From the IMG/VR virus record IMGVR_UViG_3300027906_002394, positions 1-64,000 of that record: 64,000 bases of DNA; one strand, 5' to 3'. This document shows, piece after piece, positions 10,850 through 11,200 of this stretch. A program made the position numbers and the translations under genes. The number at the start of each line of letters is the position of its first letter. Position 1 is the first letter of the stretch. This DNA is from a virus. The notes below the pieces were generated by a model. It had not been told where the DNA came from. It saw only the letters and a list, made by a program, of their open reading frames with translations, and did no database searches.

Positions 10850-11200
10850 ACCCCAGTTAAACCGCACCATCTCACCTGTGTTGAGGTTCAGAAAGAGTGC
10901 TATCGGGGTCGGACATGGACACAGGGGCCGATGCGAAAGGTGGCATATAGACCACGCTCCGCAAAGGTTAAGGCAGGGGGGACGCAGCCCCATCAAAAGG
11001 CGGAGAGACAACTAAAGGAGAGTCCAGTAGCGAAATTGCAAGCCGGCAAAGATGCGTGAATGGACAGGGCGGATGTCAAAGGGTGAGACCCGGCCGCCAA
11101 CAGGGTTGTGCCTCAATACACACGCGCTCCCCCACGGTTAGGGGAGCATCTTAGATCACGGAGGTGGGGCGGCCTATGCTTTGGGATCAGGAGTGACGCC
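10850..11200 (+). ncRNA. Candidate large structured non-coding RNA, family unassigned
   Basis: GC-rich, no credible ORF; nested helices 10862-10873/11161-11172 and 10877-10886/11111-11120; hairpin 11126-11147; internal stems; promoter directly upstream. Confidence 0.6.

Follow-up and report, generated by a model that had tools for sequence, protein, structure and literature searches.

A modular structured RNA gene with coupled minigene-like frames in its leader in an uncultured marine T4-like phage

The DNA analysed here, called the window throughout, is a stretch of 64,000 nucleotides (nt) from an 82,960-base IMG/VR virus record of about 50% completeness, and the element in question lies around positions 10850-11200, where a sequence-only reading had proposed a large phage non-coding RNA of no known family. 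Our analysis supports the phage origin, the non-coding and structured character and the unassigned status of this RNA. The flagged stretch is a genuine + strand gene for an RNA of about 400 bases; for the uncultured marine T4-like phage that carries it, this gene is an accessory, both optional and swappable. The gene is present where it had been placed, but its extent had been drawn too short, since the unit runs from about 10804 to at least 11228. The transcript probably starts at about 10800-10804 and ends at 11190 at the earliest, probably at 11228-11252. The build is modular and comprises a leader, a 162-nt core, a variable branch region, a hairpin block and a 3' module. For its function, we suggest with a probability of about 0.5 that the product would be a stable early RNA with a ribosome cap, acting in trans as a binding platform or decoy.

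The first impression of a GC-rich stretch without a credible open reading frame was borne out. The GC fraction is 0.585 at 10900-11199 compared with 0.38-0.40 in the flanks, and the longest frames encode 45 and 42 amino acids (aa), neither being common in frame or position to eight homologues. The promoter that had been read at 10769-10797 was recovered as TTGACA-17-(TGn)GATCAT and is kept in all 10 distinct homologous leaders. Two more promoters of this build, near 6685 and 13198, serve ordinary protein genes, and we therefore assigned this one to the early-promoter class. The + strand, favoured before because of the many G-U pairs, is indicated by G-U pairs within covarying helices, which fit this strand only, and by the position of the promoter on the same strand.

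The search for homologues started from flanking proteins and DNA patterns and covered viral and metagenome contigs. It returned copies with identities of 98.7% (locus L002), 83%, 80% and 77%. Two copies (L046 and L048) bear an insertion of about 200 nt, and the more distant forms (the L031 group, L061 and L063) keep the promoter, the leader and the first 160 nt and differ in the downstream part. When we ran a covariance model of leader and core (R1) on 62 sources, 21 full-length copies were recovered with E values from 2e-65 to 6e-44, and no second copy of the RNA was found in the window. Eleven weak R1 matches (E 0.0007-0.9) were dismissed after inspection, being located within or next to coding sequence; those at 61168-61224 of the window and 82253-82327 of G001 are of this kind. 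The R1 search found no core in G002, a relative of 165,637 bases with a completeness rating of 100%, which shows the gene to be optional. A relative of 91% completeness gave a weak match only, which was rejected. Chance matches were also removed from the pattern searches, namely three of the eight viral matches to a 17-mer, all of high GC content (L032, L037 and L038), and three of the nine matches to the 5' pattern (L059, L062 and L064); L044 was excluded as a 19-mer set in unrelated AT-rich sequence. The exact 19-mer of the 3' module had no match in cellular genome contigs. A looser 3' pattern gave at least 120 stretches in genome contigs, and the 80 inspected were chance-like and lacked the rest of the module; among the matches listed there was no cellular copy. 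L031-type RNAs contain exact internal direct repeats (L031 1405-1528), namely a pair of GGGGTAGTGTC copies 58 nt apart and a pair of AGCACCGATGCC copies 30 nt apart, and neither repeat occurs in the RNA of the window.

The main evidence for a structured RNA comes from the conserved core, which consists of the following elements.

10847..11008, + strand: conserved core, 162 nt long, folded as a three-way junction whose closing helix is CCGC 10862-65 with GCGG 11000-03 (RNAalifold, R1 and pair counts)
10850..10909, + strand: candidate pseudoknot S1, ACCCC 10850-54 with GGGGU 10905-09 in the S2 loop, both strands invariant
10875..10925, + strand: helix S2, CCUGUGUU 10875-82 with GACACAGG 10918-25, 8 pairs, 5 double changes, 100% of cells paired
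10926..10969, + strand: three-tier hairpin supported by covariation, GGCC/GGUU 10926-29/10966-69, UGCG/CGCA 10932-35/10960-63 and GUGG/CCAC 10940-43/10952-55
10977..10990, + strand: hairpin S5, GGG 10977-79 with CCC 10988-90, in which pair 196-207 is A-U, G-C or C-G

RNAalifold on eight distinct sequences gave 32 pairs, 14 of them compensated. We then counted pairs in a model-fitted alignment of 11 sequences (9 distinct, from about 4 lineages), where 94.3% of the cells were paired against 81.5% in column shuffles, none of 500 shuffles being as good. Changes on both sides occurred in 14 of 33 pairs, and this number dropped to 0-4 when the partners were slid by 1-3 columns; the covariation score was 0.425 against 0.182. 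In the three-tier hairpin, 7 of 12 pairs show double changes and pair 138-179 takes all four Watson-Crick types. The minimum free energy structure of the single sequence is identical with the centroid and reproduces the core fold. The S1 strands ACCCC and GGGGU are complementary in all 9 distinct sequences and never vary.

These comparisons revise the fold proposed before, and its architecture of two enclosing long-range helices is wrong, because the 3' strands of both helices change or vanish and the 5' strands are fixed and have better partners nearby. In the pairing of CCGCACCATCTC with GAGGTGGGGCGG, the 3' strand reads GAGAAGGGGCGG in L002 and is unrelated in L004, L003, L056 and L046, and the CCGC of the fixed strand CCGCACCATCTC pairs instead with GYGG at 11000-11003, inside the core. 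In that of TGTGTTGAGG with CCTCAATACA, CCTCAA changes to ACCTAA without compensation or is absent (L061, L063 and L031); the strand CCTGTGTT has a local partner in GACACAGG (10918-25), and compensation is seen in 5 of these 8 pairs. The sub-stem TGCTATC/GGTGGCA was not confirmed as a conserved structure; it competes with the covarying helix GTGG/CCAC. CTCCGC/GCGGAG survived in part: U-A to C-G and G-C/G-U/A-U changes speak for it, but three of its bases are contested by the better-supported helix 10932-35/10960-63, so that at most 3-5 pairs could form, as a second knot, with one compensated lineage for CUCC/GGAG. Two further pairings were tried and rejected, CAUCUC with GAGAUG in the S2 loop, whose variable base is never compensated, and the C-run with the G-run of S5, which shows no covariation. 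In addition, a tandem near-repeat, UUAAACCCCA and UUAAACCGCA, occupies 10846-10866 of the window with its copies 11 nt apart, and the two long-range pairings ACCCC/GGGGU and CCGC/GCGG each take their C-rich strand from one of these copies.

Sequences near-identical to the RNA are present in 20 public runs from 11 studies, 6 of these runs being RNA libraries; the window itself may come from two of the DNA runs. Four metatranscriptome libraries, each of a different study, yielded contigs that lie on 10800-11190 and cross the core without joints. The first base of two such contigs is at 10800 and 10804, a distance of 3-7 nt from the -10 box, with no loose end there, which is a weak hint that these starts mark the transcription start site. 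RNA contigs also lie on the downstream genes (records 6, 8, 9, 11 and 12). The contigs left 9000-10056 and 10359-10660 (in all four runs), most of 11191-11293, and 12171-13500 uncovered, gaps that prove nothing. At 10884-11001, run X15 yielded two contigs, one identical to the window and the other L003-like with 10 substitutions and 5 gaps, and two variants of the RNA thus co-occur in one metatranscriptome library.

The leader upstream of the core is formed by four features, the last two of which overlap.

10769..10797, + strand: early sigma-70 promoter, TTGACA-17 nt-TGn-GATCAT with an extended -10 element (10/12 matches, TG present)
10816..10821, + strand: Shine-Dalgarno (SD) sequence GAGGAG, 8 nt before the start of minigene a; a purine-rich SD is likewise placed in 10/10 distinct leaders
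10830..10838, + strand: minigene a, GTG-TTG-TGA (start, one sense codon, stop), from leader comparison
10835..10849, + strand: minigene b, GTG-ACA-ATA-GTT-TAA, in 10/10 distinct leaders, with the frame read from sequence

An SD followed only by GTG-TTG-TGA had been pointed out before. Both are present at 10816-10838, and they are no dead end but the most strikingly conserved feature of the gene. All 10 distinct leaders read SD, N6-8, xTG, one or two sense codons and TGA. The sense codon of minigene a differs by subtype (TTG, AGT, GCA, AAT, GAT, or ACA GGT), with L061 having two sense codons through an in-frame 3-nt insertion. Its stop ends 8 nt (7 in L046) before UAAACCCC, and its TGA always lies within NTGA, whose NTG is a valid start codon of minigene b. 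This second frame has three sense codons after the start and ends at the TAA of UAAACCCC, abutting the first strand of the candidate pseudoknot. A codon that is free to vary between fixed start and stop letters, combined with an indel that keeps the frame, reads as the signature of a selected reading frame.

An early promoter, an SD and a frame of 2-4 codons that ends just before the fold are all present. It is conceivable, though we hold the idea only tentatively, that the RNA is a novel type of ribosome-engaging device, in which the strong SD and the two NUGA-coupled mini-frames would bring a host ribosome to the UAA abutting the pseudoknotted junction. Possibly the ribosome would then be a structural part of the particle, acting as shield and folding clamp; another possibility is that the fold would act on the parked ribosome through sequestration or reprogramming during take-over. 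If this were true, the activity of a non-coding RNA would depend on six translated codons.

The bar minigenes of phage lambda cause peptidyl-tRNA drop-off and shut down host translation on overexpression; such toxicity goes with limiting Pth, and AUA is their last sense codon. Unlike this fixed last codon of bar-type minigenes, the sense codon of the RNA minigene is free. The frames could act as a poison, mass expression of two codons leading to peptidyl-tRNA drop-off and a shutdown of host translation. The combination of SD and two-codon frame that is typical of toxic minigenes occurs in 10/10 distinct leaders (with three codons in L061), here behind a strong promoter and with a good SD, and excerpts of PMC8708949 give strong-SD two-codon minigenes as the most toxic class. 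However, the sense codon differs in nearly every subtype, and therefore no particular tRNA would be targeted. The stop is always UGA, which the same excerpts rank as less toxic than UAA. Furthermore, a covarying structure of 350 nt would be superfluous to a poison, and the phage relies on the same ribosomes. We thus consider a poison very improbable.

Downstream of the core, the structure was read from alignments and gave the following features.

11008..11109, + strand: variable branch, stem ACAAC 11008-12 / GUUGU 11105-09 enclosing hairpins A and B (alignments)
11022..11065, + strand: hairpin A, GUCCA 11022-26 / UGGAC 11061-65, which covaries and holds 4 to about 200 nt
11068..11098, + strand: hairpin B, GGCGG 11068-72 / CCGCC 11094-98, which covaries, its cap not being conserved
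11107..11122, + strand: small hairpin, UGUG 11107-10 / CACA 11119-22, with loop CCUCAAUA and one compensated pair (L056)
11126..11147, + strand: hairpin C, GCUCCCC 11126-32 / GGGGAGC 11141-47, compensated in L005 and L058
11166..11228, + strand: 3' cassette-end module in 15 distinct variants, GGCCUAUGC 11171-79, a variable stem, CUUGCAAG, GCAUCUGGC 11210-18 and a C-run 11221-26
11229..11298, + strand: A/T-rich stretch ahead of the next gene, containing a T-run (11240-52) and two boxes of the GCCCAGAG type (11269-82 and 11285-98)

Three of the stems proposed from the window sequence recur here with compensating variants. GTCCA/TGGAC appears as GUCC/GGAC, GCCC/GGGC or GACCC/GGGUC around a loop of 4 to about 200 nt, GGCGG/CCGCC as GGCAG/CUGCU in L056 and L003, and GCTCCCC/GGGGAGC as GGCCCCC/GGGGGCC in L005 and L058. 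The T-loop-like cap that had been seen on GGCGG/CCGCC is not a lasting feature, the loop being UUCG in L056. The outer stem of the branch reads UUGCUC/GAGCAA in L061 and L063 and is weak in L003. The hairpin block 11107..11147 stands without the core in L005, L045 and L058.

The most conserved DNA lies past the end first given for the element and consists of GGCCUAUGC, a variable stem, CUUACAAGG, GCAUCUGGC, AUC and the C-run (11171-11228). These blocks are nearly invariant in the 15 distinct variants, a biased sample in that the search patterns fixed the blocks of the module. The window holds no second copy of the module and, elsewhere, no complement of the 3' tail. When we compared the flanking stem of the module with shuffled sequences, the fraction of shuffles at least as stable was low only in L061 (0.04), L065 (0.02) and L067 (0.003), with L066 borderline at 0.093; a closing stem GGCG/CGCC, tried for the window subtype, was no better than shuffles and was rejected. 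If GCCUAUGC paired with GCAUCUGGC, an H-type knot would result; its only support comes from L061 and L063, where G-U pairs are retained despite two C-to-U changes. In every homologous locus, an A/T-rich stretch and a T-run follow the module, and boxes of the type GCCCAGAG/CGCCACAG, followed by AATTTT, stand once or twice before the next gene, irrespective of its identity.

In relatives, the slot before the 3' module holds other cargo, either an 80-aa winged-helix gene (HTH_39; L065-L069) or a 147-aa gene (L005, L045 and L058). In L065, a tRNA gene (4566-4637; Rfam tRNA, 55.2 bits) lies about 50 nt after the module of the winged-helix cassette. The arrangement resembles the early-promoter and stem-loop (PeSL) cassettes of T4-type phages, which excerpts of PMC2839356 and PMC4122927 describe as short conserved non-coding boundaries near early promoters that flank units swapped among T4-like phages in hyperplastic regions. 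The module does flank exchanged units, with the RNA, the 80-aa winged-helix gene or the 147-aa gene before it. It differs from PeSLs in being single-copy in the window and not a dispersed repeat, in its length of about 60 nt with invariant blocks, and in lacking both a sigma-70 promoter and a plain terminator stem-loop inside it. Between the same boundaries, the hyperplastic regions of T4-like phages can thus accommodate either an RNA gene or small protein genes.

With such a swappable cassette, whose 3' boundary is nearly invariant in DNA across diverged loci, we considered that the element might have no RNA function at all. It might act at the DNA level, as a cassette for recombination or regulation, or be the remnant of a decayed gene, and exchange among co-infecting phages would maintain it. 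The resemblance to the PeSL-mediated shuffling described in excerpts of PMC4122927 and the unremarkable folding energy would agree with this. The compensatory changes in 14 of 33 pairs, the codon-shaped conservation of the minigenes and the presence in RNA libraries of four studies are against it, and we regard it as scarcely probable.

The transcripts of T4 oriF and oriG and ColE1 RNA II are G-rich RNAs that form R-loops and prime replication. The RNA described here is likewise a promoter-driven, G-rich and structured RNA ending near an A/T-rich stretch, and it could act as a replication-origin transcript, forming a persistent R-loop at the C-run and the A/T stretch 11221-11260 and priming DNA synthesis. 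The transcript is rich in purine and in G (GC skew +0.2, AT skew up to +0.45), a conserved C-run followed by an A/T-rich stretch is found in all loci, and 7 of the 21 GATC sites of the window fall at 10290-11230. However, an R-loop primer needs no covarying helices, translated-looking minigene or insertion-tolerant stems, so that priming would leave the minigene and the covarying periphery unexplained. In addition, the element is optional, its core being missing from a complete relative, and the RNA-library contigs show the RNA as a free species. An origin function is therefore improbable in our view.

The gene that follows the RNA in the window is the phosphatase gene given below, which is a neighbour of the RNA and no fixed partner.

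11302..11739, + strand: polynucleotide kinase-phosphatase gene with the HAD phosphatase domain only (Pfam PF25109, 2.4e-27; PHROG 415)

Behind five RNA subtypes we found four different downstream genes, namely this phosphatase gene (window, L004, L056, L003 and L046), a gene of 54-65 aa (L061 and L063), a gene of at least 269 aa (L031 and L042) and a different gene in L050. The varied downstream genes argue against a gene-specific leader. A riboswitch would be expected to keep a constant downstream gene family, which is not seen, and we found no expression platform, the downstream SD lying 60 nt past the last conserved block of the RNA. In a scan of 10000-12000, there was no canonical intrinsic terminator on the + strand between 10797 and 11802, and no sigma-70-type promoter between the RNA and the next gene. 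An early transcript may therefore extend beyond the RNA, which would then form only its stable 5' part, and a role in cis fits as well.

The RNA could accordingly be the cis-acting leader of an early operon that comprises the RNA, the phosphatase gene and the following genes up to the promoter at 13198. Such a leader would control or boost expression, be it via stability, via attenuation or via processive antitermination at the 3' module. What accumulates would be a leader that was processed or ended prematurely. The + strand without any promoter or terminator-like site from 10797 to the phosphatase gene, the RNA-library contigs on the downstream genes and the next promoter of the same class only at 13198 are all consistent with this. 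Excerpts of PMC8708949 also describe translated two-codon minigenes, including leader minigenes, that act in cis on the expression of their transcript, possibly via mRNA stability, and those of PMC3262186 describe a like cis effect of a two-codon minigene in the LEE1 leader of enterohaemorrhagic Escherichia coli (EHEC). On the other hand, four unrelated genes behind five subtypes leave no gene-specific ligand logic, the 3' module also ends protein cassettes and precedes a tRNA gene in L065, about 230 nt of variable and insertion-tolerant structure lie between the core and the 3' end, and no terminator/antiterminator pair was found. Taking both sides together, we judge a cis-acting leader rather unlikely.

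For the trans-acting early RNA that we prefer, we suggest the following course of events. The host ribosome would load at the SD and translate start-X-UGA, re-initiate on the overlapping NUGA start and terminate at the UAA abutting the fold. Occupancy by the ribosome would shield the 5' end of the RNA and would perhaps determine when the pseudoknot ACCCC/GGGGU forms. The RNA would owe its long life to the structured body and to the 3' module. Once accumulated, it would act in trans in host take-over, as a binding platform or a decoy, and its target could be a protein of host or phage origin or the ribosome. The RNA would be neither an enzyme nor the mRNA leader of one particular gene. In favour of this proposal we count the conservation of the RNA, the covariation, the strand evidence, the conserved minigenes, the RNA-library contigs, the varied downstream genes, the optional presence in relatives and the precedent of the translated two-codon minigenes in PMC8708949 and PMC3262186.

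Here, we need to consider several points that weigh against this proposal. Translation of the minigenes is predicted from sequence, and the partner of the RNA is only postulated. The absence of a + strand terminator behind the RNA and of a promoter before the next gene, as described above, does not favour a separate transcript. The folding energy is no better than that of shuffled sequences, with z values of -0.69 for 10800-11260 and -0.24 for the core, and in the window's own subtype the stem of the 3' module is likewise not above shuffles. The 9 distinct core sequences come from about 4 lineages, and their alignment was fitted to the model, which favours structure. S1 is invariant and the closing helix CCGC/GYGG shows one-sided changes only, so that neither is proven. 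Finally, the RNA-library contigs reveal neither the strand nor the true ends nor the level of the transcript.

It had been predicted that the RNA matches no known family, and when we searched the locus and six homologous loci against Rfam 15, there was no match at the gathering score. RNase P, OLE, GOLLD/ROOL and introns, any of which would have removed the novelty, did not turn up, and the RNA could not be placed in raiA, 6S, riboswitch or GP20-b families of Rfam 15 either. At the gathering score, the whole 64 kb gave only transfer-messenger RNA (tmRNA) models, at 47313-47622. At E<=10, the region 10550-11350 gave two chance matches (14.3 bits against 80, and 9.2 against 55), and at E<=1 the six homologous loci and L065 gave solely the tRNA in L065. 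ARAGORN found one gene in the window, a tmRNA at 47325-47665, and nothing at 10800-11260, and blastn of the RNA against 50,697 phage records gave no match. Our literature search found no paper that describes this RNA. Excerpts of PMC10690425 report 8,495 structured RNAs of 29-151 nt predicted from IMG/VR, and parts of this RNA may already be among those predictions; in excerpts of PMC7029224 such an RNA goes unmentioned.

A ribozyme or self-processing RNA would agree with the size, the pseudoknots and the strictly invariant single-stranded blocks such as AAAAGGYGGRGAGA and GGGGUCGGA. However, no ribozyme or intron model of Rfam 15 matches, the RNA contigs run through the core without joints and no split gene flanks the element, and we find catalysis hardly credible.

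The orphan large structured RNAs of phages and bacteria (GOLLD and ROOL, and also OLE and raiA) resemble the RNA in having several hundred nt, many covarying helices, pseudoknot candidates and peripheral stems of variable length, and further in being phage-borne, with a promoter of their own and without a known function. The RNA of the window differs from them in its smaller size, in giving no covariance-model match at any tried threshold, in its SD with coupled minigenes behind a marine T4-like early promoter, and in a 3' end that is found on protein-coding cassettes as well. To our knowledge, large structured RNAs without a known function are rare, and new biochemistry has come out of earlier examples. 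The carriers of this one are uncultured T4-like phages that are abundant in marine samples. We know of no earlier case in which an ornate non-coding fold is combined with a conserved, translated-looking minigene. Should the ribosome belong to the mechanism, this would be a new viral way to use or disarm host ribosomes.

The nearest counterparts of minigene a are the two-codon minigenes of axe-txe (mg2) and EHEC LEE1, which in excerpts of PMC8708949 and PMC3262186 likewise consist of an SD, a start, one sense codon and a stop. By analogy, the frames here may also work through ribosome occupancy and not through a peptide, with a free sense codon. They differ in that minigene a heads a structured non-coding RNA and not an mRNA, and in that it is NUGA-coupled to a second frame of 4 codons whose stop abuts the fold.

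The T4-like affiliation of the source virus is based on PHROG matches to a gp32-type single-stranded DNA-binding protein, a gp5-type baseplate hub/lysozyme and a gp48-type tail-tube cap. Its nearest cultured relatives are the Methylophilales phage Melnitz and cyanomyophages, with merely 21-32% amino-acid identity in a tail protein. At 47313-47665 the window encodes a circularly permuted (two-piece, alpha-type) tmRNA with the tag AEDNTAYEDYALAA, a type that hints at an alphaproteobacterial host.

Upstream of the RNA gene, a perfect sigma-70 promoter, TTGACA-17-TATAAT (12/12), stands 174 nt before the RNA promoter, within 10595-10768 of the window. It heads a unit of about 145 nt with an SD and a 19-codon frame, and the frame is not kept in L056. 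The block 10346-10654 is 77-87% identical to L004, L003 and L046 without a clear reading frame, and it matches L056 in parts only, at 90-93%. GATC is scarce in the window at 21 sites per 64 kb, yet the 7 sites at 10290-11230 fall within only 941 nt. One of these sites falls within the -10 box from which the RNA is transcribed, and GATC occupies the equivalent position in the two promoters near 6685 and 13198.

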